From positions 1-64,000 of the IMG/VR virus record IMGVR_UViG_3300025030_000053: a stretch of 64,000 nucleotides of DNA. The stretch is one strand, 5' to 3'. The translations under genes were made by a program, and so were the position numbers. Below the pieces are notes generated by a model. That model searched no databases and was not told where the DNA came from. It worked only from the letters and a program-made list of their open reading frames with translations. Source of the stretch: a virus. Shown piece after piece: positions 503 to 47,670 of the stretch; positions within the stretch are counted from its first letter, which is position 1; every line of letters starts with the position of its first letter.

Positions 503-907
503 TTATACTATTGATATAGATTTGTTGTTTATTTTATTATCAGATGACAGAGATATAGAATTCATTATAAAATCTGATTTTTCAAGATATTCAAATTTAC
601 CTTCATTGATTTTATCGTTCAGAACTAAAATTTTCTGTTTTCTTTTTGGATGATATGTCAATCCTAACAATCCACTTTCTAATAATTCTGCAATTTCAAT
701 TTCTATGATGATTCCTTCTTTGTGTTTTTTGGCTGGAGAAAGCAAGAAAAACGCTTCTTCTGGTTCTCTGTCATCATATTGGACCACTGATCTAAAACTT
801 GAAACTTCACCATCAAAATCCACACTTTTCACTTGGCAACCTTGATGAAGATATATCATTCCGTAATCTTTTTGTTTCCTTGATTTTCTTTTCCAAAACC
901 ATTTCAT
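503..907 (-). CDS. Hypothetical protein
   Basis: 134-aa ORF with GGAGA RBS; its start overlaps the purA stop (ATGA). Confidence 0.7.
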   Translation of the reverse strand: MKWFWKRKSRKQKDYGMIYLHQGCQVKSVDFDGEVSSFRSVVQYDDREPEEAFFLLSPAKKHKEGIIIEIEIAELLESGLLGLTYHPKRKQKILVLNDKINEGKFEYLEKSDFIMNSISLSSDNKINNKSISIV

Positions 908-2202
908 TCATTTCTCCATAATATTTGCTTTCTTTCTGGTCCCACACAAACAGAAGAAATTGTAGTTCTTACTACTCGCTCAACAAAATAAACAAATTTC
1001 TTCAATTCAGATGGCAAATCTTCAAAATTTCTGCAATTATCAATTTTTTTACCACAACTCTTCATTTCAATAAAGTTGGGAACAACAGAATAGTATTGAG
1101 TTGAATCGGCTGGAATATAGTCAATTGGAAAACCATCCAGAGAATATCCAACACATGCCTTGAATGAATCAAGTTGCGACAAAATACCCAATCCTGTCAA
1201 ACAAATTGAATCAACACCGCTGAACCTGATTGCTTCTTTCAGAGCCACCAAATCCAACCAAGCAATTCTTCTGGGACGACCAGTAGTCGTTCCATACTCA
1301 TGTGCGATCTCTCTGATGTGGTCAGCCTGAGCACCAAAAAATTCAGTAGCAACAGGCCCGCCTCCCGAACGAGATACATATGCTTTGGCAACACCATAGA
1401 CGTGGTGGATTTTCTCTGTGAAACCAGTGCCAGAAGCAATTCCACCGCAGGCTGTTGTGTTGCTGGAAGTTGTATAAGGAAACACACCTTGATCGATGTC
1501 AAGCAAGGAAGCATTCGCTCCCTCAAACAAAATTCTCTTGCCATCAATATGTGCATTTTGCAACAATCTTCTTGTGTCTGCGATTTTGAATGGGAAGGAT
1601 TGTGTCAAGTCTTCTTCAATTTGTTTGGGATCAAATTCGCTGAAAGGCTCGTCAATCAGATCTGAAAGAGCTTTCAAATACGCATTCTTGATTGTCGCAG
1701 CAAATTTCAATTTCTTTGACAATTCTGTTTGGTTTTGAATATCGCACATTCTGATTGCAGTTGAGCGATGCATCTTGTCGGCATAGCAAGGACCTATCCC
1801 TTTTGCAGTAGTTCCAACAATTTGATTCTGCTCTCTCAATTGCACTCGAAGTTTTTCTTGAAGCTGATCTTCAAACTTGTGCCAGGAAAGAACTACGTGC
1901 GCTCTGTCAGAAACATAAACATTTGGTTCAATTCCGTCTTTTTGCAGATCTTCAATTTCTTGCTTCAATTGAATTGGATCAATCACCATTCCATTACCAA
2001 GGACATTGATTTTGTCTTCCCAAAAAACACCAGAAGGAAGAAGATGGACTGCATATTTTTTGTCGTTGAATTTTATTCCATGTCCAGCATTGGCTCCTGC
2101 ATTAAACCTAACAACCACGTCATGCTGTTCAGTCAAGATGTCTATCAACGAACCTTTGCCGCAATCACCATAGGACAATCCAGATACTACACTATGCATC
2201 AT
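904..2202 (-). CDS. purA: Adenylosuccinate synthetase (PurA family, divergent motifs)
   Basis: YGDCGKG P-loop, NAGH, GTTAKGIGPCYADK, EGANASLLDID..FPYTTSS, EYGTTTGRPRRIAWLD. Confidence 0.93.
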   Translation of the reverse strand: MMHSVVSGLSYGDCGKGSLIDILTEQHDVVVRFNAGANAGHGIKFNDKKYAVHLLPSGVFWEDKINVLGNGMVIDPIQLKQEIEDLQKDGIEPNVYVSDRAHVVLSWHKFEDQLQEKLRVQLREQNQIVGTTAKGIGPCYADKMHRSTAIRMCDIQNQTELSKKLKFAATIKNAYLKALSDLIDEPFSEFDPKQIEEDLTQSFPFKIADTRRLLQNAHIDGKRILFEGANASLLDIDQGVFPYTTSSNTTACGGIASGTGFTEKIHHVYGVAKAYVSRSGGGPVATEFFGAQADHIREIAHEYGTTTGRPRRIAWLDLVALKEAIRFSGVDSICLTGLGILSQLDSFKACVGYSLDGFPIDYIPADSTQYYSVVPNFIEMKSCGKKIDNCRNFEDLPSELKKFVYFVERVVRTTISSVCVGPERKQILWRNE

Positions 2203-9126: not shown

Positions 9127-9152
9127 CTTCTAAAAATCATATTTGAATTCCT
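9127..9152 (-). promoter_or_regulatory. SigH-like promoter (variant) of the helicase gene
   Basis: Minus strand AGGA-N18-GAAG, 11 nt before an ATG that lacks an SD. Confidence 0.4.
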
Positions 9153-9157
9153 GTTTT

Positions 9158-10150
9158 TCAATCTTTTATTTCAAATTTGGCTACACAATAATCATTGATC
9201 AGAGTCAAAGCAATATATTTGAAAATAACCATTCCATATCTGAGCTGCTTTGGATCATCTGCTTCTAATTCTTGATTGTCTATTTTGATTGTAGCCATTC
9301 CAAGAGATCCAGGTCCTGCGAGTGTATAGCAAGTATTTTTGGGGACCATATAACTTTGATTGATATTTATCTTTCCAGGAATGAAATCTGATGTGTCATT
9401 CACGACTAAATTGTCTTTTTCCAAATCAAAATACTCTTCAGCTCTCTCCCACACCGAAGGATGTATCAAAATGTTATGGCAACTAACTCCGTGAGCTTTC
9501 AATTTGGCAGTTGCACTTTTGTATCCTTTTTTAACATCTTCAATATCAAATGATCCCACAAAATGATCTTTGTGTATCCAAGTAGATTGTTGCGGTATGA
9601 ATGTCTCATCCCCTTTGTCTTTAGAACCTGACAATGATAGATCAGAAATTTGGTTGCCAAGGACTTGTTCCAACAACATAACAATATGCTGGTCTTCATT
9701 TCTGGCAAGGGTTTCTACGGCTTTTTGTCGAACGGATTCTTTTCGTCCAGGGCAATCTTCTACTATTTTCCAAGTAGGATTGGTGGCCAAAGTGAAAAAC
9801 TCTGGTGATATTTCTTCAGCTTGCACAATCATATCTGGAACAGAGCCTCGTTGCGGAATTCTATAGCTCACCACAGAAAACCCTCGTTTATATACTGGTT
9901 TATCATTTAGTCCCACGTAGTCAGGTTTGAATATTTTTCTTGAAAATGGGATGTATTGATCTTCCTCAATCTCAAAATCTATCTCTGATTTGACATCATC
10001 TCGCAGAACTTCTTTGTTCAAAGCCACACGAATCACATCAGACAAAGATATTTCGCAAGAAAATGTTTCTGACATCTCTTGTGCTTTGGTTCTCAAACTT
10101 TCCAAAAGTTCTTCATCTAATCTGACATTGATTTGTTTTGTTTCACCCAT
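9158..10150 (-). CDS. Ribbon-helix-helix domain fused to a divergent major capsid protein paralog
   Basis: N-terminal KQINVRLDEELLESLR...SLSDVIRVAL (Arc/CopG-type RHH). The rest aligns with MCP 15118..15978, e.g. VVSYRIPQRGSVPDMIVQAEE vs VVSYVIPKRGSVPDMLVEAEE, plus MVPKNT, DDPKQLR and INDY. Confidence 0.85.
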   Translation of the reverse strand: MGETKQINVRLDEELLESLRTKAQEMSETFSCEISLSDVIRVALNKEVLRDDVKSEIDFEIEEDQYIPFSRKIFKPDYVGLNDKPVYKRGFSVVSYRIPQRGSVPDMIVQAEEISPEFFTLATNPTWKIVEDCPGRKESVRQKAVETLARNEDQHIVMLLEQVLGNQISDLSLSGSKDKGDETFIPQQSTWIHKDHFVGSFDIEDVKKGYKSATAKLKAHGVSCHNILIHPSVWERAEEYFDLEKDNLVVNDTSDFIPGKININQSYMVPKNTCYTLAGPGSLGMATIKIDNQELEADDPKQLRYGMVIFKYIALTLINDYCVAKFEIKD

Positions 10151-10200
10151 AATATCTCTCCATTTCGTATAACAATGTAAAGCTTCGCTATACAGATATA

Positions 10201-11331
10201 TTATATCAATTTTTTTGAGAAAACAAACAAGTTCTCATTCTTTTTTTGCACAATTCCAGATTTTGCCTTACCAGAAAGATGACTCCTGGATGTGATCAAC
10301 GGAAATTGCTCAATCAATGTCATTCCCATCTTTTCGCACACAGAAACCATATCCTTTGCCAATTCACGAGAATCAACTTCGTTGACGGCAATCATCCCGA
10401 ATTTTGCATCATCAGCCATCACCTTCAAGCAATTTTCAATTGTCATTTTCCAATATCCATCCAGCCAATCTGAATAATTCCCAAACATCTGAACACTTTG
10501 CGAAGCATCAGAAGAATAGTTTTCAAGATTGAAATAGGGCGGACAAGAGAACACAAAATCGCACACAGGAACGTCAAAGGAGTCAGTTGAGGGTTGCTTC
10601 AGAACCTCACCAGTGCCTCCAAAACAAATCAAGAGGTCATTCAGGCTGTCAGCAGTCAAAGGATCCACGGCAAAATATTCTAGCCCCTCTGACAAGGCTC
10701 CCAGTGCCCTGGCACCCCAGCCGGCAGAATAGTCAAACACCCTTTTAGAAGCATATCTGTGATAGATCCACTTGGCGACTGCGGGTTTGAACTGAGACAC
10801 AGAATAGGACAAACCAGAAGATCTCATTCCTTGAATGAGCATAGGATTTGACATCGCAAACACATATGGTCTCTCGTGCCCATCTTCCTCCATTGAACAC
10901 CACCCCATCCGATTCTGGATGACCCTCATCAATTTGGAGTCATCGTTGAACACGTCAAAACAAGAAAAAGTTTTAGAATCGCCGCGAGCAGCATAGAAAT
11001 ATTGCCCACAGAAATGTTTGACAATATCCGTGGCACATGAATCTGAATTTTTGATGCAATCATTGACAAGCACGACTGATTCGTCCTTCTCTTTCAATTT
11101 TTCGAAGGATTTATGCAATTGTTTGTTGTTCAAAAATGGTAAAGGAAAGCCAGAAGATCGAAAATAATCAAAAACCCATTGAGCCAAATCAACTCTGTCC
11201 TGTCCTGACTTAGACCAGATGTATTCAGCAGTCAATGGATTTCCTGCTGGGTCAACCAAGGAAAATTTTGAATTGGTTTCAATCAAATATGGGTTTGACG
11301 AATTCAGACAATCAAATGGAACATCATTCAT
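10201..11331 (-). CDS. SAM-dependent DNA amino-methyltransferase-like protein
   Basis: QFKPAVAK, VFDYSAGWGAR (SAM-binding), FSCPPYFNLENYS (PPY catalytic motif). Confidence 0.8.
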   Translation of the reverse strand: MNDVPFDCLNSSNPYLIETNSKFSLVDPAGNPLTAEYIWSKSGQDRVDLAQWVFDYFRSSGFPLPFLNNKQLHKSFEKLKEKDESVVLVNDCIKNSDSCATDIVKHFCGQYFYAARGDSKTFSCFDVFNDDSKLMRVIQNRMGWCSMEEDGHERPYVFAMSNPMLIQGMRSSGLSYSVSQFKPAVAKWIYHRYASKRVFDYSAGWGARALGALSEGLEYFAVDPLTADSLNDLLICFGGTGEVLKQPSTDSFDVPVCDFVFSCPPYFNLENYSSDASQSVQMFGNYSDWLDGYWKMTIENCLKVMADDAKFGMIAVNEVDSRELAKDMVSVCEKMGMTLIEQFPLITSRSHLSGKAKSGIVQKKNENLFVFSKKLI

Positions 11332-12080
11332 CTTTTTTCACTTCCAAAAAACACTTTTTTCTCCAAAAAAACTGGAAATTTTTTCTTGTATTTCAAAACA
11401 CCCCCAGAGGAAGCCCCCCAGTTGATCAGAAAAGGTTTCTGAATTTCTTTGAAAATTCTTTCAAAGGTATTGAAATCAATGAACAGGCACAGATTCCTCA
11501 ACGACACATCATTCTTCCGAATGACATATCTGAAACATCCATCGTCAGAAATTTTCGACACCACAGAATACCCCACCAACCTGCCATTCAGATAGAAGAA
11601 ATTTGACCACAAATCTTGTTTTTCAAATTCCCAGAATTTGCGGAAAAAATTGCGATCATATCCAGAATGACGCTGCCAGCCATATTTATCGCCAGACTGA
11701 TCATCCCACATATCGATCAATGACGAAACTTCGCCAAAAGAGATCGGATTGTCTTGGATGTCAATTTGTTGGTTGAAATGATTCCTGGTTTCTCTAATCT
11801 CAGAAAATTCCTTTCCTGACAAATTGAAAAATTCTTCATCAAATTCAGATAAAACAAGAATTGATGAATATGTCGAACATCTTTTGTCAAGATTTTCTTT
11901 GGACGGCAAATATCCCCAAGAAATTCTGTTAGACAATGGGAAATCTGACAAACTCACGGAATCATCGAACACAACAACTTGTTTGGAATTTTTCCAAAAA
12001 CCAGCCCAATCATCGAATGGTTTGGCGGTTTTTGACATCATTCCTTGAATTGTGTGGCGATTGATATAATCGTCAACCAT
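11328..12080 (-). CDS. DUF2156 / LPG-synthase C-terminal-like GNAT-fold transferase
   Basis: FNLSGKEFSEIRETRNHF, FYLNGRLVGYSV, IRKND...LCLFID, INWG...VLKYKKKFP resemble the aminoacyl-tRNA-dependent transferase domain. Confidence 0.55.
   Translation of the reverse strand: MVDDYINRHTIQGMMSKTAKPFDDWAGFWKNSKQVVVFDDSVSLSDFPLSNRISWGYLPSKENLDKRCSTYSSILVLSEFDEEFFNLSGKEFSEIRETRNHFNQQIDIQDNPISFGEVSSLIDMWDDQSGDKYGWQRHSGYDRNFFRKFWEFEKQDLWSNFFYLNGRLVGYSVVSKISDDGCFRYVIRKNDVSLRNLCLFIDFNTFERIFKEIQKPFLINWGASSGGVLKYKKKFPVFLEKKVFFGSEKR
11551..11657. repeat. 107-bp direct repeat, copy 1 (copy 2 at 12308..12414)
   Basis: 105/107 identical by manual alignment. Confidence 0.9.
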
Positions 12081-12816
12081 TTAGTTTTTCCTTTATGATG
12101 CACAGATATACCTCTTCAACAGATTTCACCGGGAATTTGTTCTTGTATTCCAACAATTTCTTTCCGGAAGTTCCCCAATCAATCAAAAACGGCAGTTGAA
12201 TTTCATTGAAAATTCTTTCAAAGGTCTTGAAATCCAAAAACAAAGAAAGATCTTTCAAGGAGATGTCATTTTTGCCCATCAAATAGTTGTAGCAGTTGTC
12301 CTGTCCGATTTTCGACACCACAGAATACCCCACCAACCTGCCATTCAGATAGAAGAAATTGGACCACAAATCTTGTTTTTCAGATTCCCAGAATTTGCGG
12401 AAAAAATTGCGATCTCGACCGGAGCGAATCGACTGCCAGGCAAAAGTCTCAGAACGTTGTTCATCCCATATGTCAATCAAGGACATCACGTCATTCAATG
12501 AATCAAATTCATCTCGGATTTCCACTGATGAATATCTGTTCAGTGCAGCTCGGAATTTTCTCCATCTGTGCCCCGAAAGACTCAGGAACTCAGAGTCAAT
12601 CTCTGCGATTGATTTGAAAAGTTTGTATTTTGTTGAAACACCAGGAATGAGAGATGGGTCTTTGACATCGCGGATCTGAATTTGTTGAGCAGAAATTTTC
12701 GTTGGCTGCCAAACGACAAGAGTTTTTTTCTTAGAATTTGTCCAAAAACCAGACCAATCATCGAGGGGAATGCAATTTTTCGACATCAGTGATTGAATTT
12801 CGTGCCTGGGAACCAT
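12073..12816 (-). CDS. DUF2156-like GNAT-fold transferase, paralog of 11328..12080
   Basis: LSLSGHRWRKFRAALNRY; shared block KQDLWSNFFYLNGRLVGYSVVSKI. Confidence 0.55.
   Translation of the reverse strand: MVPRHEIQSLMSKNCIPLDDWSGFWTNSKKKTLVVWQPTKISAQQIQIRDVKDPSLIPGVSTKYKLFKSIAEIDSEFLSLSGHRWRKFRAALNRYSSVEIRDEFDSLNDVMSLIDIWDEQRSETFAWQSIRSGRDRNFFRKFWESEKQDLWSNFFYLNGRLVGYSVVSKIGQDNCYNYLMGKNDISLKDLSLFLDFKTFERIFNEIQLPFLIDWGTSGKKLLEYKNKFPVKSVEEVYLCIIKEKLNG
12308..12414. repeat. 107-bp direct repeat, copy 2
   Basis: Matches 11551..11657 with 2 mismatches. Confidence 0.9.
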
Positions 12817-13980
12817 TTATTTCTCCATGTCGAACTTGTAGTACATCACCGGCGGCAATTGTTGCCAGGGAATCTGTTCTAGCAATGTGCGATATTCTGC
12901 TGCTCCGAACCAGAGCCAAAAATATTCAGAATCGTCAGAATTGTCAATCCTGGCGTCAACACCGAATTTGTCTTTGAAAAATTGAGACATCATCTTGTGA
13001 TCCTGCTCATCAAAATTGTGAGTGCAAAGTGTCAAACCAGTTCCATGACGACTTCCATCATCAGCAATCCAAATTGCGACGGACAATGGAGTGATCTTGT
13101 CCAGCCACCATTGAGAGATTACTCGCTTCTTGGAAGAAATATAGATCTTGTCGTAGATTTCCTTCCACAAGGAATGGTACGGCAAGTCGAATTTATAGAC
13201 TCGTTGAGAGATTTCTTCATCTGTCAACGAGGCTGCCATTTTCACGGAAACATGATGTCCTGACTGATCAGAAAGGTAAGTTTTTGGATGCCATCTGAGC
13301 ATTTTTTGGGATTTCCAAAAAGCATATTCTCGCTGCTTTGGACCATGCGATTCTCGAAAACAGAAATTGTTGTCTTTTTGTTTGCAGATGCAGCCATCGC
13401 CGAGCAAAGATCCAAAAATGACAGACTCCTCTTCTGGCGTGAGATCGTTTGGAAGATGTCGACGAAAAACATCCGATCTGCGTCGTTTTGTGATGACCAA
13501 TTCTTTGAGTTTGTCCCTTACGGAAAGATAGGTTTTCCCAGGAATTGATTGATTTATTTGTTTGACAGGAACCAATTCTGAATATTTTTCCAAAAGAATT
13601 TTTTCTTCATCAGGTGTCCATTGAATATTCTCCTCTATTTCTTCAAAAGATTGCTTTGTTCTGCATTGTTTGCAAAGACCATTCGAAGAATGTGGGATTT
13701 TAGATGTTCCACACTGAACGCAACAATCATGTTCTCTTGACCACATTCCTGATGGCAATTGGCTGTTGCTTCCCTTTTTTCCGCGCTTTGAATCTCCGCT
13801 TGCTTTGGCTATTTTTGCGACTCTGGGATCGGATTTGTCCTTTCCTTTCATCCAGGCTTCTCTCAATGGGTCATCTGGAAATTGCTTTTTGAATTCCCCA
13901 ACGGACAATTTGTGTGTTTGACGGACATGGGACAAAATCGATTTCTCAAAATCATTCTGGCAGATTGGACATTTCAGCAT
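12817..13980 (-). CDS. LAGLIDADG homing endonuclease with N-terminal zinc fingers and Myb-like segment
   Basis: IFGSLLGDG and VAIWIADDGS motifs; CPIC..H...H; WTPDEEKILLE. Confidence 0.85.
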   Translation of the reverse strand: MLKCPICQNDFEKSILSHVRQTHKLSVGEFKKQFPDDPLREAWMKGKDKSDPRVAKIAKASGDSKRGKKGSNSQLPSGMWSREHDCCVQCGTSKIPHSSNGLCKQCRTKQSFEEIEENIQWTPDEEKILLEKYSELVPVKQINQSIPGKTYLSVRDKLKELVITKRRRSDVFRRHLPNDLTPEEESVIFGSLLGDGCICKQKDNNFCFRESHGPKQREYAFWKSQKMLRWHPKTYLSDQSGHHVSVKMAASLTDEEISQRVYKFDLPYHSLWKEIYDKIYISSKKRVISQWWLDKITPLSVAIWIADDGSRHGTGLTLCTHNFDEQDHKMMSQFFKDKFGVDARIDNSDDSEYFWLWFGAAEYRTLLEQIPWQQLPPVMYYKFDMEK

Positions 13981-13981
13981 T

Positions 13982-15010
13982 TTAGTTTCCTTTCAAATAG
14001 TGATCTATTTTCTTCTTTTTTCGAGTCAAAAAGATTGTTGCATTGGCATACATCTTTGGAATAATCTTTGACATTTGGTTATTTCCATTGTATCTCATCC
14101 TAAAAATAGTTTTGTCTTTGTTTCTTGGAGATATTTTGGTTCGATTGACATTGCATTCAGATATCAAAAATTCTTGACAACCAGACAGGACATCCATAGT
14201 TCCTGTGATATCAAGCGAATGGCAACCACCTTCAGAATCTTGAGAATAGAATCCGCCATCTCCATCATTCAATCCCCTTACCAAGTGCCATTGCAATTCT
14301 GTGTTTTCCAAATCAACCCATTTGGCAATAAAAGTTTTTCTAGGAACAATGTCATACTTTGCAAGATCTGAACAAAGTTTGTTGTTTCTGATTTCAAGTG
14401 AGCAATGACTGGGTTTGTCATTGATTTTGTGGTCAGAATCCAAACATTGCAGCAATTTGACAAGAATTTCACGATCCTGGTTGTGAATCGTGATTCTCAA
14501 TTTTTTGGCAGCCGTTCCATAATCTCCGATGGATCCATCGGCAAGGATGAAACCAAGAAAATAAGCCTTTGCTTCTGAATCTATCGTTTCAAAAAAGTTT
14601 TCATTGCAATGGTGTTTTTTGTGGGATTCGCTATTCGTTCGAAATGGAATGTTATTTTGTTTAAGTATTTTTCTGATTGGAATTGTTGAAGTGCCAAATT
14701 TATTTGCTATCTGAATCAAAGTCATTCCAGATTGGTAGTCTAAAATCACCCGTTGTTCATCTTCGTTTGACTGAATTTTTCTCAAATGTACCACTCCAAT
14801 TCTCGTTGCGTCAGATTTGTTCCTTCCTGGAATTTTGTTCAGCAACAAAATCTTGTCAATTCCTCCGGCTGTGAAATTGAATTGCGTGGCAAGTTCAAAA
14901 CAGGTTGTTTCTGTGTTTTGATAGTCATCGCAAATTTTCTGTTCATCTGCTTCTGAAATTTTCTTTTGAAAAGGCATCGAAATTTCTCCTTCGTGAAAGA
15001 GATTACTCAA
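13982..15010 (-). CDS. LAGLIDADG homing endonuclease with N-terminal HTH repeats
   Basis: KAYFLGFILADGSI and HLVRGLNDGDGG; GMTLIQIANKFG HTH. Start uncertain. Confidence 0.85.
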   Translation of the reverse strand: MSNLFHEGEISMPFQKKISEADEQKICDDYQNTETTCFELATQFNFTAGGIDKILLLNKIPGRNKSDATRIGVVHLRKIQSNEDEQRVILDYQSGMTLIQIANKFGTSTIPIRKILKQNNIPFRTNSESHKKHHCNENFFETIDSEAKAYFLGFILADGSIGDYGTAAKKLRITIHNQDREILVKLLQCLDSDHKINDKPSHCSLEIRNNKLCSDLAKYDIVPRKTFIAKWVDLENTELQWHLVRGLNDGDGGFYSQDSEGGCHSLDITGTMDVLSGCQEFLISECNVNRTKISPRNKDKTIFRMRYNGNNQMSKIIPKMYANATIFLTRKKKKIDHYLKGN

Positions 15011-15117: not shown

Positions 15118-15978
15118 TTAGTTGTTCACGATTCTGATTTGCGCGGTTGCGTAATCGTTTATGACGGCTATTCCGAGCTCTTCGTAGATAACCCACCCAA
15201 GTCTTAGTTGTTTAGGATCATCTGATGGCAGAACTGTGATGTCCTGTCTGATAGGCATTGCACCTACAAATTCTCCCGGAGCCAACACATAGACTGTGTT
15301 CTTTGGAACCATCGTGGAAACATGTATGTCCGCGGTCCATAGGTGGCCGTAGAGACCTGACATGATGACGTCTCGTTGAGTTGCCTCATCGAAAAAGTCT
15401 TTGCCCCAAGCTCTCACGTCCTTGTATCGGAATGGATGGCAAACAACTTTTGCGCCAACCAATTCATGCTCTTCAATCAAGGCTAGTGCCAAGTTGATGT
15501 GATCAGGAGCAAGATTTCCAGCTACGGTGACAGTATGAGCGGCAGGGATGCCAGCTTGAAGAATTCGGAATACTTCCCGATCTTCCTGTCTTTGTAGAGA
15601 ATCTTTTGCTCTGATTTGAGCACGATCCACAATATAGAATCTTCGTGCGCGAATTTCTTGCAGTCTGATTGTTGGGTTACAAGCAAGTTCCCAAGTAGGA
15701 ACAAGCAGTTCTTCAGCTTCGACGAGCATGTCAGGCACGGATCCACGTTTTGGAATTACGTAAGACACGACAGCAACGTCTCTTTCGTATCTTGGAAGAG
15801 CGCCTTGGGGAAGTTCGTCAACCATCAAAAGTTTTCTACCAATTGCTTGGTATTCCAACGCAATTTTGATTGGTTCTACCATGGCCTGGGCAAGAGACAC
15901 GCGACCTTCTGGCGTATCTAGTGCTTGAGCGATGATTTCTTCTTTTTGCTCATTCACATTTCGTTTGATTAGACTCAT
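15118..15978 (-). CDS. Major capsid protein (HK97 fold, compact, no delta domain)
   Basis: GRVSLAQAMVEPI..LEYQAIGRKLLMVDELPQGALPRYERD; follows portal-protease-scaffold; strong RBS and terminator. Confidence 0.88.
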   Translation of the reverse strand: MSLIKRNVNEQKEEIIAQALDTPEGRVSLAQAMVEPIKIALEYQAIGRKLLMVDELPQGALPRYERDVAVVSYVIPKRGSVPDMLVEAEELLVPTWELACNPTIRLQEIRARRFYIVDRAQIRAKDSLQRQEDREVFRILQAGIPAAHTVTVAGNLAPDHINLALALIEEHELVGAKVVCHPFRYKDVRAWGKDFFDEATQRDVIMSGLYGHLWTADIHVSTMVPKNTVYVLAPGEFVGAMPIRQDITVLPSDDPKQLRLGWVIYEELGIAVINDYATAQIRIVNN

Positions 15979-18837: not shown

Positions 18838-18886
18838 TATCTAACAAAAACAATAATTCCTTCTTTTATTGAAAATATTTTCAATA
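18838..18886 (-). promoter_or_regulatory. Possible SigH-like promoter with adjacent 20-bp palindrome
   Basis: AAAGAAGGA-N16-GATA on the minus strand; TATTGAAAATATTTTCAATA at 18867..18886. Confidence 0.4.
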
Positions 18887-18889
18887 TTC

Positions 18890-19384
18890 TTAATATTCTC
18901 CATATCCACCGCGACCTTCGGCTCTATCGGCACATCTGTCGCATTGATAACCTCTTGATTTGTCTATTTTTGTAAGTGTATTTGGCGTGCCGCATGTAGG
19001 ACATGGATAGATTCTTGGATTGCTTGAAGTTTCGGCACGAAGGGAAGATCGTCCACCTGGATCGGCAAAACCAACTCCATCAATTAAATCATCTTCGTCT
19101 TGATCATACTGATGTGCTTCCTCTTCTCGTTCATTTATTAATTCGCCATTCCCCATCCCATCATCTATTTTGTCGCACCAGTCACATAAATCATCAACGC
19201 TCAGTCGATCTCCGCAATATGAACAAAATTTTTCATCGCGAATATCATCATAATCATCATAGTCATCATCCTCATATTGTGCGATTTTCTTCATCGCCAG
19301 ATTGATCAATCTTCCTGCTTCAAGATTTCCAGATTTTTCAAAAGATCTTGCCACATTTGCCAAAGCAATCAATTGTTTTTTCAT
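18890..19384 (-). CDS. Zinc-ribbon protein with putative capsid-targeting leader
   Basis: Leader MKKQLIALAN...AMKKIAQ; CSYC/CDWC and CPTC/CDRC pairs. Confidence 0.7.
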   Translation of the reverse strand: MKKQLIALANVARSFEKSGNLEAGRLINLAMKKIAQYEDDDYDDYDDIRDEKFCSYCGDRLSVDDLCDWCDKIDDGMGNGELINEREEEAHQYDQDEDDLIDGVGFADPGGRSSLRAETSSNPRIYPCPTCGTPNTLTKIDKSRGYQCDRCADRAEGRGGYGEY

Positions 19385-19617: not shown

Positions 19618-22600
19618 TTAGATGCACCAAGTGATGTCGTTTCTGATCTTTCCATCAGAAGTCTTTGCTAATTTGACAACAGAAATAGTTGAACAAGAAT
19701 CGCAATATACATTAGTCTTGTCTACCGATGCGACTCTGACAACTCTCTCTATTTCACCGCAAGCCGGACAGACATGTCCTGCCGCCTGGGTCCCAGATTT
19801 TTCAATCTCACCTCTGTGGGTATAGGCAGTTCTCAGGAACACATCTGGATCGTCAACCCAAGAAAGTCTGGCAATCAATGGGACATCAGATGAAGCAGTC
19901 ACCACGCGGTTGAAGATGCTTCTGGCCATTGGCGTGCCTGGCATACCAGTCGGCATAGGAGCACCTTGTCCTCCCACTGCTGCTGTTCCTGCCGCAGCTC
20001 CTGCACCAGGTTGCTCAAGAGGATTCACTTCTTCTCCTGGGATCTCTTCGCCCATCTCCATTGGTTCTTCTTCACCAAGGTTTGTACCTTCTGAGAATCC
20101 TTCTGGGTTGACGATTTGAATTTGCATCGTCACCTCAAATTCAGTCGCGCAATCATTGCACTTGCCGTGACCTTCTGCAAGATCAACATCAGTTGAACCG
20201 CAAGCTGGACAAATAGAGCCTGGAGGAGCAATTTGCCCCGGAGTTGGCAATGATTCTTCTGGAGATTTTTCATCACCCATTTCATCAGATGCACCTGGTT
20301 CTCCGCCGCCTGTGATTGCTGCAATTCCAGGATCTGCGCCAGTAGCTGCGGCAGCAGGATCTGCACCGGGGTTGCCAGCCAGTCCTTCTCCCATTCCTCC
20401 AGCGCCCATTGCCTGGGCTGCCTTGACTAATGCTTCTCGCTCATCTTTTCTTGCTTGAATCACCTTGTCTGACAAAACAGAATTGGCAACTACACCGATT
20501 GCGACTGGAGCAGATTCTCTTGCCTCATTGGCAGAGAAAGTTCTCACCACTGAAGACTTGATTGTACCGCAAACATGTCCATTATCGTTGATATCCAACG
20601 AAGTGAAACTCAATGATTCAGGATCTGACAGCTCATATCCTCTGTCACCGAACAATCTAACAACATATTCTCGAATTCTTGATTCAACTTCTGGATCGTT
20701 TTTGTCACAACCGGCTTCGCTTAGATCGAATTGAACTGTGAATTCTCTTTCTGATCTGTCGGTCACCGATGCAGAAGTTTTCAACAATTTGTCAACAGCC
20801 ATGTTGATGGCTTTTTTCGTTGCTTCTGGTTTATCTTTCAAAAGATCGATGGTGTCAACTGCGCTTCGAGTGGAAACATTGTTGTCGGAGATGTTGTCAG
20901 CAATCATATTGATCAATCTTTGGGAAATATCTTCTGAGTTGAGTTCAATATTTGCTTTCTTTCCTAACCAATAATTTTTTCTTGAATTAGTTATTTTTCT
21001 TTGATTGACTAATTCTTTATCTTTTGCAAGTTCAATCTCTGAATATACTTCATTTCTGTCAAATGAATTCAGCAATCCAGTCATTTCTTCATCAGATGCT
21101 TGTTTTTCAATCAATGTTTTAGCCAGAGCAGTAATCACTGCTTTCACAGATTCTTTGGAAACTTGTGATTCTCCAGAATCTTGAGATGCCATTGCTTTCA
21201 AGAATTGCTTTCTGATTTCAGATTGTTTCACCAAATCTGGTTCAAATGATTCAATATAACTTGAAGAATTTCCAGTTCTATCAATTTCATCTTTTGCCAT
21301 TTGCCCAATCAAAGAAGCATATTTTTCTTGATTTTGTGCTTGAAGTTCTTTCAACCCGTGAACTAAATCCAAAGGCAAAACTTCTTGTGAGGCGACATCA
21401 GAAAGGTTGCCAATCAAATAAGAATCTAAATTAGTATTTTCCGAAAGAACTACTTTTCTGCCATAGAATCTCGATCGCTTGCGCAAAACTTCTCTTGCAT
21501 CTTTGTGCTCTTTGGCGGAATATTCTGAAATCACATCTGCTAAATCATCTCCACTTGAAGCGAGTTTGATCGCAGAAGAAACAACTTCTTCTGGGCTTAC
21601 CATCGCCTCAACAACTGATTTTGCTAAAGCTGCATTCACAGATTCAACAATTTTAGCAGCATCTCCTCGTGCTCGTCTTGGGCTCAGTCTATTTTCTTCA
21701 ACTTGGACATCTACACCTTCGCGTACATCTTCAAGTTGATGTTCTTTGACTCGCGGATCAACTTCTCCTCGTCCCAGATGTCCATCAGCTACACTTCTGT
21801 CTCCAAGCTGGTGTTCTTTGACTCGTGGGTCAACGCCTTGGCGAACTTCTGCAAGATCATTTTCGCGATTACTATTCAATCCCTTTCTCGCATTTTCAAC
21901 ATAATTTTCTTCTGGATATCCTGGATTGCCCAATCTTCCAACAGGCCAGGTTGCATCTTTAGACTGGAAACGTCTTTCAGTCCCCTCTGCTGGCGTTTCT
22001 GCATCTACGCTGGCAACTCTTTGGATTCTGCGATTGTCTGAATAGGCCACAACAAATTGATTTAGAAGTTCGGAGGTGACATTTGCGATTTGTCCTTCGT
22101 CGATTCTGTCAATCAAATCATCAGAAATTTCTGGTTTCCAATCAACCTGCATGCCCCTATATGACGCTTTGATGTCGCCATTAGATGCAACAGAAATTTT
22201 ATAACCACCAATTTCTTGCTCATAGGTCTCTGTTTTTTCAGCACTTTTTTGCTCTCGTAGAGTTGCGGCAAGTTTTCTGAATTCACTCATAATGCCACTT
22301 TCCTCCTTATTTGGATGTGTATTGCAAATATATTTACAAGTTTTTTCTAACTTTTCCTTTAATTTTGCTAATTTTATTATTTTTTGTTCTGTAGATGCAC
22401 CAACCTGCATACCTACTCCCTCCGGCGGAGTCGCATATTCAGGATTCCCAGTCGGAGGAGTTTGCACTGGCGCTCCCATTTGTGGAGATTGTCCAGGTGT
22501 GATAGGTACACTACCACTGATGTCAATAGATCCAGAATCAATCATGTCCTCAATTGTATCTTGAATGTCTGCCACGCTCTTGGATAAATCTCTGACATGT

Positions 22601-23841
22601 TCAAGATTGATTCCTCTAGTGTTCAGAAGGGTGACGATCACCGTGTTGATGTGCTGGATAACACCCTTCAGTGCATCAAGTGTATTGATTCCTACACCTT
22701 CTCCTGTCGATGGTGCTGTTCCATCAGGAACTGGCGGGGCAAGAGCAGCCGCAGGGTCAGCCATAGGAACTACTTGTTCTTGTTGCCCTGGTCCTGCTAA
22801 TTGATTCACCTGGCTGGCAGGATCGGCAATATCTCTTGGTGATTCTGGAAAAATTTGTGAGGATTTCAGGAATTTTGTTTCTTCTCGTTCTGCCACTTTG
22901 ACTATTTTATCTGTCAAATTCGCAACAGCAACAAACAACTCTCTTGTTTCGTCTGATTCCAAAATTTCATCTCTTTCAAGACATAATTTGATGTTTTCAT
23001 TGACATTTTTAGATTCTTTCTTGATACTTTCTGTCATTGATTTGATCATTTTTTCGTGCGGAAGAGTCAATTCAATTTCACAATTTTCATAAGCCCCATC
23101 TGACACACAAGAAAGTTCGATGAATTTCACTCCGTAGTTCTTTTCAAACACTGGTTCATCGGTGACTCTCTTGCCTTTGTTTGGTCCTTTGTCAACTACT
23201 CCACTGAATTTTCTACCCTTGAATTGTTTGATGTGACTGCAAAATTCTGATTCTTTCACTGCTTTGTTGTCGCAGATTGAGCATCGGCTATGGTCAACCG
23301 ATGCACCCATTGACACATCTTTGATATATCCTTCCTGTATGCCCCTTGCTAATTGCGGATAAGCTTCTGCATCAATATAGAATGTGCAATATACACATTT
23401 TTCATTTTTGTCCCACTCTGCGTGGACTACTTTTCCTTTGGCTTGCTCAATATCATCGTTCTTGTGATTGGTGTATATTGGAACACCTTCAAATGTTTTA
23501 TAAGTAGGAATCTTGCCCTTGTTGCCGGCATCTACTTCTTTGAGCAATTCTTCTTCGGAGAAAGAATCTCCATTTTCATTGGCTTGGTCAGCATCAATTG
23601 CCCTAGCCCTAGCCCATAAAAATGTATCCGGGCGCATTTTCATTTCTTCAAGGACTGGGGTGTCTGCGTATTTTTTGATCAATTCATCAACATCGTCTAA
23701 ATCTTTATCGGTCAATTCACCGGTGTGAGCAACCTTTACCATTTTCATTGAACCATCTGATTTTGCTATTTTGATAGTCCAAACAAAATCGAGTGGTATT
23801 TTGCCACCATATATAGTTTTTTTGAGCACTGGAATCCTCAC
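19618..23841 (-). CDS. Prohead (maturation) protease with long C-terminal scaffold-like region and zinc ribbons
   Basis: NENGDSF, TFEGVPIYTNH, DVSMG, FIELSCV (herpes/HK97-type protease His/Ser motifs); directly downstream of portal. Confidence 0.8.
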   Translation of the reverse strand: MRIPVLKKTIYGGKIPLDFVWTIKIAKSDGSMKMVKVAHTGELTDKDLDDVDELIKKYADTPVLEEMKMRPDTFLWARARAIDADQANENGDSFSEEELLKEVDAGNKGKIPTYKTFEGVPIYTNHKNDDIEQAKGKVVHAEWDKNEKCVYCTFYIDAEAYPQLARGIQEGYIKDVSMGASVDHSRCSICDNKAVKESEFCSHIKQFKGRKFSGVVDKGPNKGKRVTDEPVFEKNYGVKFIELSCVSDGAYENCEIELTLPHEKMIKSMTESIKKESKNVNENIKLCLERDEILESDETRELFVAVANLTDKIVKVAEREETKFLKSSQIFPESPRDIADPASQVNQLAGPGQQEQVVPMADPAAALAPPVPDGTAPSTGEGVGINTLDALKGVIQHINTVIVTLLNTRGINLEHVRDLSKSVADIQDTIEDMIDSGSIDISGSVPITPGQSPQMGAPVQTPPTGNPEYATPPEGVGMQVGASTEQKIIKLAKLKEKLEKTCKYICNTHPNKEESGIMSEFRKLAATLREQKSAEKTETYEQEIGGYKISVASNGDIKASYRGMQVDWKPEISDDLIDRIDEGQIANVTSELLNQFVVAYSDNRRIQRVASVDAETPAEGTERRFQSKDATWPVGRLGNPGYPEENYVENARKGLNSNRENDLAEVRQGVDPRVKEHQLGDRSVADGHLGRGEVDPRVKEHQLEDVREGVDVQVEENRLSPRRARGDAAKIVESVNAALAKSVVEAMVSPEEVVSSAIKLASSGDDLADVISEYSAKEHKDAREVLRKRSRFYGRKVVLSENTNLDSYLIGNLSDVASQEVLPLDLVHGLKELQAQNQEKYASLIGQMAKDEIDRTGNSSSYIESFEPDLVKQSEIRKQFLKAMASQDSGESQVSKESVKAVITALAKTLIEKQASDEEMTGLLNSFDRNEVYSEIELAKDKELVNQRKITNSRKNYWLGKKANIELNSEDISQRLINMIADNISDNNVSTRSAVDTIDLLKDKPEATKKAINMAVDKLLKTSASVTDRSEREFTVQFDLSEAGCDKNDPEVESRIREYVVRLFGDRGYELSDPESLSFTSLDINDNGHVCGTIKSSVVRTFSANEARESAPVAIGVVANSVLSDKVIQARKDEREALVKAAQAMGAGGMGEGLAGNPGADPAAAATGADPGIAAITGGGEPGASDEMGDEKSPEESLPTPGQIAPPGSICPACGSTDVDLAEGHGKCNDCATEFEVTMQIQIVNPEGFSEGTNLGEEEPMEMGEEIPGEEVNPLEQPGAGAAAGTAAVGGQGAPMPTGMPGTPMARSIFNRVVTASSDVPLIARLSWVDDPDVFLRTAYTHRGEIEKSGTQAAGHVCPACGEIERVVRVASVDKTNVYCDSCSTISVVKLAKTSDGKIRNDITWCI

Positions 23842-23919: not shown

Positions 23920-26900
23920 CTATTCTGATTGATTTTTACCTTGGTGTCTTTCCATTGCAGTTCTTGTGATCACCTTCATCACCTGATCTATCTTTTCTTT
24001 CACCTCATCTTCCGTGAATCTCAAAACTATCCATCCCATTGACCAAAGGGTTTGGTCCTTTTTCTTGTCTCTCTCAACCTGCTCAATAGACTGATGCCAA
24101 GTTTTCCCATCCACCTCGATGGCTATCTTGAGGCCAGGGAAAGCAAGATCAACCGAAAGATTATTTTGAGAGTAGGGGTAATATTGTGCAACAGAGGCAA
24201 ATGGGAGTTGCCCTGATTGATTTGCTTTCATGATTGCTTCAAACAATGCCATTTCTGCTTTGTTGAACCATTTGTGATAAGCATTGTCCTGTTTTTTATT
24301 GTCTTTACCGGCAAATCTTGCCATTTGGAAAATATCTCTCCCCACAGACACAAATGGCTGCCAGTCTGGATCAAAATCAATCATTTCCAAGTCATCTGGA
24401 ATTTCTCTGATAGATTCCTCTAATGACAAATCAGAACCAGCAACAAATTTCTTTGCCTGCGATACGGCCTCTCTGTGCATTCGAATACGATCCAAAACAG
24501 AAGCAACAGGAGGAGGTGCCCCACCAGGAACGCCCATGTCCATGGCCCCTGGCATACCTGGTGCTGGTGCCGGAGCACCTTCCCCCATAGCACCTGGCAT
24601 CTCTGTCGGCATTGCTCCGCCGACCATTGGTGGCATCCCTCCTCCTGCGCCTATCTCTCCCCCTTCTTGTACTCCCAAACCTAAATCTGGAGATGTCAGC
24701 ATATTGCCCATTTCTTCTTGCTTCAGCAATTCTACTTCAGTATCATAGTCAATGTCGAACTTGGAAAGGAGTGTCTGCAAAGAAATCTCATTCCTTTGTC
24801 GCAATTGAAGAAGATTTGCAATTTCTTGATTGTTTTCTTTCAGTCCAAGGTCATTGAAAACAATTTCTGGATAGATAATTTCTTCAATACCCTTGGGGCT
24901 GACAGATGTAAAATTATTCCATTCAGATACTGGCTTGAATATCTTTTGCTCAATCCAATGTTTGAGTTGATTTCTAAAAGTGTTCAATCTTGCAGCGAGG
25001 GCATCCAACCCTACCTGAGCAGAAGCATAATTCGGTCCTTCACCATGAACCAGCGCTTTGTTCATCTGAAAACCGGAGAGGATGTCTTCATTGATCATTT
25101 CATATTCATCTGTCAGCATCAACACTTTTCCAGCGCTGCCTTCGAATGAATTTCCTTGAATTGTTATTTTCCCATTTCTTCTGGTAACGAAAAATCCTGT
25201 TTCTGTCTCAAAACACCAAACAAAATCATTTCTTTCCACATAATTTTTATGTTCAGATTTAACTTTGGGATATTTACCCCTATTAGATTGCTCAGACCAA
25301 CTTACTCTATATTGTTGATTACCACATTCATTAGTAAATTCTGATATAAGCGGTGCATAACCTAATTTAAAAACTATTTCTTGTACATCATTGGCTAATT
25401 GTTTGGATACTGTATGATATATTCTATATCTAACTTTATATCCTTGATTATCAATTTGAGTTCTTCCATCTCCCTTCATCATAGATTCTAAAATAGTTTT
25501 TAATTTATTTTTTGGTAAATTTTTAATCCAAGATGGTATATTTTTCTCAAAACACCCAGATCCAAAATTATTTTTAAAATATATTGCTAATTTTTTATTT
25601 AGAATATCCCATGAAACTACTTTTTTATTTTCATATTCATATTTGTGATATTTAATTCCAAATTTTAACATCATATTATTAATTTCAGAATAATATTGTG
25701 AATATTTACTTTGACTAATACTAACACGATATTGTCTTGTTTCTTTTTTATATGTAGTATATCCCTCTGATAAATACCATCCTACATATTCCAAATATTT
25801 ATTTATTTCTATTTCTAAATTATCATATATACATACTGAGTCAATATCATTTCCTGGTGATTCCTTCCATTCAGACACCGCCCTGAAATGGTCCCCCGAT
25901 TTAACATTGTCAGCTATGTCAGTATGCCATTCTCCAGAACATCCTTTTTTAATTAACATCTTATGATGTTTGGTGACACATACATCCATTTTAGATGATT
26001 TAAAATTTATCATCTCTCTGTTCTTTGCTTCAAATTTAAATCTATTTTTAAAATTAGAATAATACATTTTTTCTGTATCAGTGTCAAAAATCATTATTTT
26101 TTCAAAATCTGAAACATCATCGTAAAATTTCCATCCATTTTCAGTTAAAACTTCTGTGTCAGAAGAATAGCAAAGATCAAAAGCATGATGCACAACCAAA
26201 GTCAACAACGGATCATTGGCCACTTGAGACAACTGCTCTTGCACTGCTGCCAGATCATCTTCGCTCGCTGGTCTCTGATCTGATCCTACTTTGACAATTT
26301 TGATTGGCAAAATATGTCTGTCAACAACCATCCATTGTGCCTGCCGAAGTTTGTCTCGGTAAGCCAGTGTTGGAAAAAGCCTACGAATCAAAGATGTCCC
26401 ATATGTTTCATAAGGACTTGCTGCGAATTTGAGATGTGTGGCAGCAATAGGATTTAATTTGATTTTTTGTTTAGTTTTGATTCGTTCGCGAATTTCAGGA
26501 GGAATTTGGTTATATATTTCTTCTGGCTTGCCTTTGATGCAAACATCAACCAGTTGATCATTCGGAATCCACTCAATAACAGGATCCTGAGTGCCAAGTG
26601 CTTGAGCAGAAACTTCAATGGTATTTGGGTCAAAAATTGACAACCCTCCCCAAGTAGCACCCTCATGCTCACACGGGCGACCATTATCTGGAATGTTGCC
26701 TGTTCCATGACATGTTGGGCAATCCATTTCAAGCAAAACGAAACAATCTCCATAGGCATAATATTCGTAGGCTATTTGTGGAAGCCATTTGTCTAATTGA
26801 ATTTTTTCTCTGCAAAGTTTTTCAAAATATTCTTTTACTGCTCCATTGGGACATTCTAACTTGTATCCATTCATAGAAAATGAAGAATAAAAATCTAACC

Positions 26901-27177
26901 CAGTAGCCACCAGGGCTTCATTTCGAAGCCAGTATTTTGACCATGCATACACTTCTTTGCGATTGGTTGGAATTTGCCAAGCAGATGCAGTATGCTGCGG
27001 GGCATAGAATCCTGGAGGAGTAGTTGTAATGTTGTACGAATTAGATGTTGACTGGGCAGAAACTTCTAACCCAAAAACAGGTCTCCTGGAGGCTACTACA
27101 TTGGGATTAGCGTATTGAGATTTTTGTGGAGGACCAGAATATTTGACAACTCTGGTATTGGTTTTGTTTTCAGTCAT
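23920..27177 (-). CDS. Portal protein with LAGLIDADG intein and C-terminal DUF559-like nuclease domain
   Basis: EYYAYGDCF, THLK...YGTSLIRRLF, PIKIVKVG portal motifs; intein; VDLAFPGLKIAIEVDGKTWH...RDKKKD...GWIVLRF. Confidence 0.85.
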   Translation of the reverse strand: MTENKTNTRVVKYSGPPQKSQYANPNVVASRRPVFGLEVSAQSTSNSYNITTTPPGFYAPQHTASAWQIPTNRKEVYAWSKYWLRNEALVATGLDFYSSFSMNGYKLECPNGAVKEYFEKLCREKIQLDKWLPQIAYEYYAYGDCFVLLEMDCPTCHGTGNIPDNGRPCEHEGATWGGLSIFDPNTIEVSAQALGTQDPVIEWIPNDQLVDVCIKGKPEEIYNQIPPEIRERIKTKQKIKLNPIAATHLKFAASPYETYGTSLIRRLFPTLAYRDKLRQAQWMVVDRHILPIKIVKVGSDQRPASEDDLAAVQEQLSQVANDPLLTLVVHHAFDLCYSSDTEVLTENGWKFYDDVSDFEKIMIFDTDTEKMYYSNFKNRFKFEAKNREMINFKSSKMDVCVTKHHKMLIKKGCSGEWHTDIADNVKSGDHFRAVSEWKESPGNDIDSVCIYDNLEIEINKYLEYVGWYLSEGYTTYKKETRQYRVSISQSKYSQYYSEINNMMLKFGIKYHKYEYENKKVVSWDILNKKLAIYFKNNFGSGCFEKNIPSWIKNLPKNKLKTILESMMKGDGRTQIDNQGYKVRYRIYHTVSKQLANDVQEIVFKLGYAPLISEFTNECGNQQYRVSWSEQSNRGKYPKVKSEHKNYVERNDFVWCFETETGFFVTRRNGKITIQGNSFEGSAGKVLMLTDEYEMINEDILSGFQMNKALVHGEGPNYASAQVGLDALAARLNTFRNQLKHWIEQKIFKPVSEWNNFTSVSPKGIEEIIYPEIVFNDLGLKENNQEIANLLQLRQRNEISLQTLLSKFDIDYDTEVELLKQEEMGNMLTSPDLGLGVQEGGEIGAGGGMPPMVGGAMPTEMPGAMGEGAPAPAPGMPGAMDMGVPGGAPPPVASVLDRIRMHREAVSQAKKFVAGSDLSLEESIREIPDDLEMIDFDPDWQPFVSVGRDIFQMARFAGKDNKKQDNAYHKWFNKAEMALFEAIMKANQSGQLPFASVAQYYPYSQNNLSVDLAFPGLKIAIEVDGKTWHQSIEQVERDKKKDQTLWSMGWIVLRFTEDEVKEKIDQVMKVITRTAMERHQGKNQSE
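25150..26172 (-). mobile_element. Intein (341 aa) with LAGLIDADG endonuclease, in portal
   Basis: CYSSDTEVLTENGWK, TKHH, VGWYLSEG, MKGDG, VWCFET...ITIQGN|S; AT-rich. Confidence 0.92.
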
Positions 27178-27214
27178 ATTTCATCCTTCACAAACTATTA
27201 TATCAATTAATTGT

Positions 27215-47644: not shown

Positions 47645-47670
47645 ATTCTCAACTTAAAGTTGAGAATCCT
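47645..47670 (-). promoter_or_regulatory. SigH-like terminase promoter overlapped by an 11-bp inverted repeat
   Basis: AGGA-N18-GAAT; ATTCTCAACTT-A-AAGTTGAGAAT at 47645..47667. Confidence 0.55.

Follow-up and report, generated by a model that had tools for sequence, protein, structure and literature searches.

A diverged paralogue of the major capsid protein with a predicted N-terminal ribbon-helix-helix domain in an uncultured relative of phage G, and its possible role in gene control

The DNA considered here, in the following called the window, comprises the first 64 kb (positions 1 to 64,000) of the 105.8-kb IMG/VR virus record IMGVR_UViG_3300025030_000053, which is estimated to be 30% complete. 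At positions 9158-10150 it contains a gene, here termed RHH-MCP2, whose product combines a predicted ribbon-helix-helix (RHH) domain with a body that has the HK97 fold of a major capsid protein (MCP), and the canonical MCP is encoded separately in the same window. A preliminary description, made from the sequence alone, had noticed this combination and had listed several conceivable functions. Going beyond it, we find that RHH-MCP2 is one member of a large and diverse family, and that it is an old paralogue and not a recent duplicate of the resident MCP. As the best explanation we propose, with about as much doubt as confidence, that it may be an autoregulated RHH DNA-binding protein that has co-opted the capsid fold for oligomerization or for sensing or binding the MCP; in all likelihood, it does not serve to build the shell. 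The parts of the gene, the MCP that serves as reference copy, and the genes directly downstream of the latter are located as follows (pLDDT, predicted local distance difference test).

9158-10150, minus strand: RHH-MCP2 gene, ATG start, 330 amino acids, stop codon included
10156-10161, minus strand: ribosome-binding site GGAGAG, 5 nt before the ATG
9992-10150, minus strand: predicted RHH domain, residues 1-53, with the strand KQINVRL (residues 5-11), helix A (13-30) and helix B (36-53)
9959-9991, minus strand: acidic low-confidence linker in place of the MCP N-arm, residues 54-64, pLDDT about 53
9161-9958, minus strand: HK97-fold body, residues 65-330, collinear with MCP residues 42-283
9812-9874, minus strand: E-loop hairpin block, residues 93-113, 17 of 21 residues matching the resident MCP
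9560-9655, minus strand: lineage-specific insertion after the spine helix, residues 166-197, predicted to be disordered
15118-15978, minus strand: canonical MCP of the phage G gp27 type
12817-15010, minus strand: two LAGLIDADG-type homing endonuclease genes, between the MCP gene and RHH-MCP2

The canonical MCP matches phrog_2522 (E-value 3e-66) and PDB entry 6wkk (1e-94), and it shares 52% identity with gp27 of Bacillus phage G. Upstream of it lie a portal-like gene, a protease fusion and two more head-region genes, which shows that we are dealing with a relative of the megaphage G that has not been cultured. When RHH-MCP2 is compared with this MCP by BLASTP, 29% identity over 273 residues is found (2e-30), and the alignment contains the 17/21 block as well as the short motifs that had initially been named as common to both proteins. 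RHH-MCP2 also matches 6wkk (8e-14) and phrog_2522 (1.6e-6) by itself, the family profile matches 6wkk at 6.7e-61, and in a Foldseek comparison an AlphaFold2 model is matched best, at about 1e-10, by HK97, by capsids of other phages and by encapsulins. By these comparisons, E-loop, spine helix, P-domain and A-domain of the HK97 fold are all present. The model itself, calculated with a 58-sequence alignment, has a pLDDT of 88 and consists of an extended N-terminus, two helices, a low-confidence linker and the HK97 fold.

The alignment begins at MCP residue 42, which pairs with residue 65 of RHH-MCP2, so the N-arm of the MCP (residues 1-41) has no counterpart, in line with the missing N-terminal segment that had been pointed out before. 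The N-arm motif AQAL..EGR..LAQAMVEPI is absent from RHH-MCP2. In HK97-type shells, the N-arm ties capsomers together. The body of RHH-MCP2 is derived from a phage-G-type MCP and has lost this arm. In a tree of capsid domains, RHH-MCP2 groups with its relatives P0002 and P0003 (support 96) and not with the MCP of its own phage, which is placed among the canonical MCPs that possess an N-arm; RHH-MCP2 is therefore an old paralogue.

An assembly artefact had been named as one way in which the fusion could prove spurious. This objection fails, because a 493-nt contig from a different study spans positions 9875-10367 and thus bridges the fusion junction with 0 differences, and because the same architecture recurs in many relatives. 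Contigs from other runs and studies that cover the region are likewise 100% identical, and a protein that is identical to RHH-MCP2 (P0067) is encoded on 9 public contigs. The phage occurs at groundwater sites.

The assignment of the N-terminal domain to the RHH fold, as it can be made from profiles and model, is weak for RHH-MCP2 alone and becomes stronger at the level of the family. With RHH-MCP2 as query, all RHH profiles stay below threshold, namely Pfam RHH_1 with 0.025 (15 bits at a cutoff of 20.5), CopG_antitoxin with 0.011, and the PHROG of Arc-like repressors with 0.0035. Among 22 family members, the best values are 1.3e-4 for RHH_1 and 4.3e-6 for CopG_antitoxin, RHH_3 is reached as well (0.013), and P0029 matches the Arc-like repressor PHROG at 4.6e-4. 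When the family profile is compared with the PDB, four of the five best matches after the capsid protein are RHH proteins, all aligned at profile positions 5-54, with the weak E-values of 0.065 for NikR, 0.48 for CopG (two entries) and 0.64 for ORF56, and an unrelated RNA polymerase subunit appears at a similar E-value. A PDB search with the single sequence of residues 1-54 gave only chance-level matches to designed proteins. The topology agrees with the strand-helix-helix arrangement of about 45 residues that is expected of an RHH domain, as residues 1-12 are extended and residues 13-30 and 36-53 are helical in the AlphaFold2 model, with a pLDDT of about 95 over residues 11-40, and the same pattern is kept in 22 aligned fusions. 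The side chains of Q6, N8 and R10 in the strand face outward. This Q-x-N-x-R pattern is found in RHH-MCP2, P0002, P0003, P0029 and the copy of the related record G021, and other fusions have S/T-x-R/K at this place; we take Q-x-N-x-R to be the arrangement of P22 Arc (QFNLR), and regard this as a lead only. A complex prediction with two copies of residues 1-62 (score 0.15, mark 0.42) counts neither for nor against dimerization.

Within the body, the E-loop block VVSYRIPQRGSVPDMIVQAEE (residues 93-113) deserves special attention, since it is far closer to the MCP of the same phage (16-17 of 21 residues) than to relatives. For comparison, the mean E-loop identity is 0.40 over the short-linker relatives and 0.27 over other canonical MCPs. 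We considered a recent gene conversion as the source of this match, and this could be ruled out, as only 44 of the 63 nucleotides of the block are identical and the same codon is used for only 6 of the 17 identical residues. As the synonymous sites are scrambled, it is selection that keeps the match. In case of the fusion in record G001, 12 of 21 positions agree with the E-loop of the MCP of its own lineage. The match in RHH-MCP2 suggests a contact with MCP-type subunits, which would not be a property of the whole family.

How widespread are such fusions? When 1.84 billion representatives were searched exhaustively with HMMER, 66 matches were obtained, and according to inspection and alignment at least 22 protein clusters (at 50% identity) carry the N-terminal strand-helix-helix before an MCP-like body. 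Together with three IMG/VR records that contain a full-length RHH fusion, this answers the suggestion of the preliminary description that the architecture be sought in related phages. A short-linker form, which includes RHH-MCP2, P0002-7, P0009, P0029, P0025 and P0044, and a long-linker form of 358-408 residues can be distinguished, and the fusions form two clades with long terminal branches in the capsid-domain tree. A canonical MCP accompanies RHH-MCP2 in every record that provides enough sequence, including each of the three IMG/VR records. In G001, a 138-kb record that is rated complete, the fusion is 67 kb away from the MCP gene, and a second sample of the same phage is another of the three records; in G015, the distance to the canonical MCP gene is 18 kb. 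By all searches, the family appears to be restricted to uncultured relatives of phage G. No member was found in isolated phages of a collection of 50,697 phage records, in which RHH-MCP2 gave no tblastn match and P0004 and P0031 matched only canonical MCPs. Neither IMG/VR scans with single proteins (RHH-MCP2, P0002, P0004, P0005 and P0029) nor a word-index protein search gave a match, a first metagenome scan (alignment A3) revealed no relative, and in 185,579 species genomes the type B alignment found only three canonical-MCP matches, all in contigs of metagenome-assembled genomes.

The relationship to the MCP gene becomes clearer when the closest relatives are compared. The MCP of G021 is 86% identical to the MCP of the window, and an RHH-bearing second copy follows about 1.3 kb downstream of it. 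The MCP of G023 is 76% identical, and its second copy, at the same position, has a C-terminal extension that is rich in heptad-like repeats. These second copies share only 21% (G021) and 25% (G023) identity with RHH-MCP2, and the second copy thus evolves much faster than the MCP. The order MCP, homing endonuclease, second copy is common to the window, G021 and G023, and the endonuclease genes are homologous. Each of the named relatives, i.e. phage G, LR745208 (485 kb) and Tunturi_5, has one MCP and no second one. Among the related IMG/VR records, 33 are 100 kb or longer, and only 5 of these contain a second MCP-like copy, and 6 of 7 related records of at least 90% completeness have one copy only; the second copy is an accessory gene. 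As regards distant carriers, the fusion gene is found next to helicase and Ser/Thr kinase genes in L094, next to an endonuclease gene in L016, and next to a divergently transcribed methyltransferase gene in L007. A conserved neighborhood was looked for in these three carriers by BLASTP and had to be dismissed, as no neighbor is homologous.

Two further observations concern the MCP genes of this phage group. The 178-kb record G022 contains several extra MCP-derived open reading frames (L165:8439-9692(+), L166:15423-16292(+), L166:2916-3423(-) and L166:8749-9258(-)), among them one with a 150-residue N-terminal extension that is not of the RHH type, one in which the segments of the MCP appear in a changed order, and short fragments of the C-terminus. 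In this group, MCP genes seem to have been repeatedly duplicated and reshaped. In some relatives (L093 and L095, record G020 at 82511-82690 and 83728-84267), the canonical MCP gene is present in two pieces about 1 kb apart, which suggests an intron or the insertion of a homing endonuclease.

If RHH-MCP2 bound DNA, the region upstream of its own gene would be the natural place to look for operators, and three elements can be listed there.

10200-10208, minus strand: extended -10 element TGATATAAT, about 50 nt upstream of the gene
10195-10207, no strand assigned: perfect 13-bp palindrome (6+1+6) GATATA-N-TATATC over the -10 element, candidate operator, sole exact copy in the window
10167-10193, minus strand: leader with GTATAGC (10187-10193) and GTTATAC (10167-10173), 20 bp apart, candidate operator half-sites

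The two leader heptamers are degenerate copies of the unit GTTATAGC, which is iterated before the counterpart gene in G021. There, 6.8 tandem 12-bp units that contain GTTATAGC lie between the TATAAT and the ribosome-binding site of the fusion gene (Tandem Repeats Finder score 115), and this 82-bp array (L167:10848-10929) is unique in the 183-kb record. The loose motif of the leader in the window occurs only 16 times on both strands of the 64 kb. Different elements are found at the corresponding place in distant carriers: in L007, a 12-bp palindrome and TAGTA repeats follow just after the TATAAT in a 55-bp divergent intergenic region; in L094, three tandem TGTAATC[G/T] units precede the ribosome-binding site; and in L016, the palindrome TGTATAATACA lies over the -10 element. 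The promoter class was also considered as a clue to timing. The core TTGATATAATA of the extended -10 element is found again at 27196-27206 before the portal-like gene, and other head genes carry AGGA-N17-GAAT sites, so that with such mixed sites among head genes neither early nor late timing can be assigned.

As candidate operators, the preliminary description had named palindromes at about 18867 and 47645, near presumed late promoters. This proposal is not supported, as these two have no sequence in common, either between themselves or with the elements beside the gene, and the single occurrence of the palindrome at 47648 in the window does not exceed the chance expectation; the region 10167-10207 offers the better candidates. 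Of the two palindromes, that at 18869-18886 is an AT-only perfect palindrome of 18 bp just after the stop codon of the gene 18890-19384, and that at 47648-47664 is a perfect palindrome of 17 bp that fills the spacer of an AGGA-N18-GAAT promoter-like site.

In the window, RHH-MCP2 is flanked by a methyltransferase-like gene and an SNF2 helicase gene. Directly after its stop codon and 12 nt before the helicase gene, there is an AGGA-N18-GAAG site (9127-9152, minus strand), and the helicase therefore probably has its own promoter. None of the neighbors matches a toxin family, as an adjacent toxin gene of a CopG/ParD-type system would do. On the other side, positions 10201-12816 (minus strand) encode two paralogous proteins of about 250 residues with a weak LPG_synthase_C/DUF2156-like match (0.0033), and beside them a methyltransferase-like protein of 376 residues (phrog_12517, phrog_498). 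This cassette looks like an insertion, because it is absent between the MCP gene and the second copy in the closest relative G021. Further away, at 23920-27177 (minus strand), the portal-like protein of 1085 residues matches phrog_16240 (1e-33) over residues 72-332, and its middle part has unrelated weak matches (thymidylate synthase-like, PhoH-like), which may represent an inserted domain or an intein. In the protein of 1407 residues encoded at 19618-23841 (minus strand), a domain near the N-terminus resembles head-maturation proteases (phrog_18299, 4e-17), and the more than 1000 residues after it have no assigned function. At 904-2202 (minus strand), a protein of 432 residues is encoded that has a match of 2.5e-90 to phrog_1211, which stands for the PurZ-type adenylosuccinate synthetase. 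As this enzyme marks genomes that contain 2-aminoadenine (Z), Z may replace A in the DNA of this phage.

Which function could such a fusion protein have? Among the options that had been put forward, a repressor-type role fits best, as it agrees with the repeats and palindromes at the fusion genes' own promoters, the accessory nature and fast divergence of the gene, and its position away from head genes in distant phages; an encapsulin-like shell and an assembly inhibitor found no specific support, and a minor subunit that tethers the genome survives as a rival. An autoregulated DNA-binding protein would build on features that are observed, i.e. both folds as seen in profiles and model, the paralogy, the family, the canonical MCP that accompanies the fusion, its rapid divergence and the repeats before the genes, and from these we infer DNA binding, autoregulation, an oligomeric state and possibly a coupling to the MCP. 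RHH dimers would bind the repeated sites in the promoter and leader of their own gene and thereby regulate their own synthesis. The capsid-fold body would provide a capsomer-like higher-order oligomerization or bind the resident MCP, and repression could thus track the pool of capsid proteins. An unlikely elaboration is an assembly-coupled switch, in which a capsomer-like RHH-MCP2 oligomer would repress its own and perhaps other promoters until MCP capsomers titrate the repressor. As MCP accumulates, RHH-MCP2 would be drawn into or capped by MCP capsomers via its MCP-matched E-loop, and transcription would then be reset directly by the amount of capsid protein or by the assembly of proheads.

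Several observations do not fit easily to an autoregulator. The core TTGATATAATA is shared with the portal-like gene, so part of the palindrome at 10195-10207 may be plain promoter sequence; the window offers no more than the two degenerate copies of the motif and a single AT-rich palindrome, short AT-rich palindromes are frequent in its DNA (the 64 kb contain 46 palindromes with arms of 6 nt), and the L016 palindrome is also found at a second, neighboring promoter. The positional counterpart in G023 has no RHH domain. In three phages (the window, G021 and G023), the second copy follows closely downstream of the MCP gene, from which only mobile or accessory genes separate it, an arrangement similar to that of gp23 and gp24 in T4. 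E-loop conservation is not general, as the copies of G015, G021 and G023 have degenerate E-loops, and where it exists it would equally fit a structural subunit that co-assembles with the MCP.

Such a subunit is indeed what has to be weighed most carefully, although we consider it rather unlikely. RHH-MCP2 could in principle co-assemble with the MCP as a minor or vertex subunit, forming pentons like T4 gp24 or rare positions of the lattice, with the N-terminal RHH domain either gripping the packaged DNA inside the shell or being removed by the prohead protease. The complete HK97 fold, the E-loop block that selection keeps 17/21 identical to the resident MCP, and the position downstream of the MCP gene in three related phages would agree with this, as would the comparable divergence of T4 gp24 beside gp23 and the fact that N-terminal extensions of HK97-type proteins, such as the delta domain and the N-helices of encapsulins, face the interior. 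However, a shell component would hardly be absent from most relatives with the same type of MCP, including 6 of the 7 records of at least 90% completeness, and an identity of 21-25% between phages whose MCPs are 76-86% identical is hard to reconcile with the constraints of a lattice. It would also have to do without the N-arm, in three other carriers without a proper E-loop, and in G001 and G015 with a gene far from the head genes, and a purely structural protein would not need repeat arrays in its own leader. An autoregulated DNA-binding protein is favored over a fixed lattice component because of the conserved RHH domain with its predicted DNA-reading residues and the repeat arrays at the fusion genes' own promoters, because of the patchy distribution together with a divergence far faster than that of the MCP, and because of the loss of the N-arm and the position away from head genes in distant phages; the disordered 32-residue insertion, too, can be counted on this side.

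What other alternatives exist? The second copy might be a weapon or a decoy, i.e. a mimic of the capsid protein that would spoil the assembly of related phages during co-infection or would sequester the MCP-recognizing defense sensors of the host, and that travels with the neighboring homing endonucleases as a competition cassette. Extreme divergence, patchy distribution, the homing endonuclease genes between the MCP gene and the second copy in three phages, and the several further MCP-derived paralogues and fragments of G022 would all be explained, but neither a conserved RHH domain with DNA-reading residues nor the repeat arrays would have a role, no defense or anti-defense gene is linked, and the idea is conjectural throughout; it is quite improbable. 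That the gene is a decaying duplicate with no function of its own is hardly credible. Fast divergence and an insertion that is predicted to be disordered could be read in this way, but the open reading frame is intact and has a ribosome-binding site and a promoter, the architecture is kept in at least 22 clusters of two clades, motifs are conserved while synonymous sites are saturated, and samples of several studies show no difference in sequence.

A full-text literature search found no published fusion of an RHH domain to an HK97 fold, in agreement with the preliminary description, and the RHH-MCP2 family is apparently undescribed. To our knowledge, capsid proteins of the HK97 fold are known as builders of shells in phages, herpesviruses and encapsulins, and not as parts of DNA-binding regulators. 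If the proposal is true, we would have a clear example of how a structural protein of a virus is recruited to control genes, or of how a dedicated domain tethers DNA to the shell. Either outcome would be new for tailed phages, and would open a direct experimental route to the question of how the production of heads is coordinated with gene expression in giant phages. The family moreover marks a hotspot beside the MCP gene, where homing endonucleases and a number of paralogues derived from the MCP are found and where capsid genes are duplicated and repurposed.

Among known systems, T4 gp24 comes close in genetic terms, as it is likewise a diverged HK97-fold MCP paralogue (20-30% identity to the MCP) that is encoded near the MCP gene of a large myovirus. 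In contrast to RHH-MCP2, which has an RHH domain in place of the N-arm and changes far faster than its MCP, gp24 lacks a DNA-binding domain and belongs to the fixed components of the virion in T4-like phages; a paralogue of its type would be conserved alongside the MCP across the phage group, but a second copy is present in only the 5 of 33 large related records mentioned above. The capsid protein of phage G itself, gp27 (6wkk), belongs to the same HK97-fold family, and its E-loop, spine helix, A-domain and P-domain are collinear with RHH-MCP2, which lacks the first approximately 41 residues and has gained the 32-residue insertion and the RHH domain; phage G has no second copy. HK97 folds with a lumen-facing appendage, or MCP homologues that modulate assembly, are represented by the delta domain of HK97 gp5, by N-terminally fused encapsulins, and by the capsid-size redirector Ccm of phage-inducible chromosomal islands (PICI). 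These appendages are scaffold, cargo or sensor domains and not RHH domains, and the phage with RHH-MCP2 has its own canonical MCP; neither cargo genes nor a satellite context were seen around RHH-MCP2, and instead of a cellular cargo operon that is devoid of morphogenesis genes, as expected for an encapsulin, the surroundings are those of a phage, with genes for a portal-like protein, a protease and the MCP on the contig.

From the side of the DNA-binding domain, the RHH repressors P22 Arc, Mnt, CopG, omega and NikR and the CopG/ParD antitoxins share with RHH-MCP2 the N-terminal strand-helix-helix and the alternating polar residues of the strand, and RHH-MCP2 and its family have weak but consistent profile matches to CopG, NikR, ORF56 and Arc-like PHROGs. 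Such repressors act at palindromes or tandem repeats in their own promoters, which resemble the candidate operators described here, and RHH domains are also combined with C-terminal domains for oligomerization or partner binding, but we know of no RHH protein whose C-terminal domain has a capsid fold. Expression is tied to the abundance of a capsid protein in case of the MS2 coat protein, which is a translational repressor, and of P4 Psu, a decoration protein that inhibits Rho. This likeness is only conceptual, as these proteins have other folds, other nucleic-acid targets and no dedicated DNA-binding domain. The logic of an assembly-coupled switch would be that of FlgM and sigma-28, or of the conditional cooperativity of toxin-antitoxin systems, and RHH-MCP2 would have built it from a recycled capsid fold.

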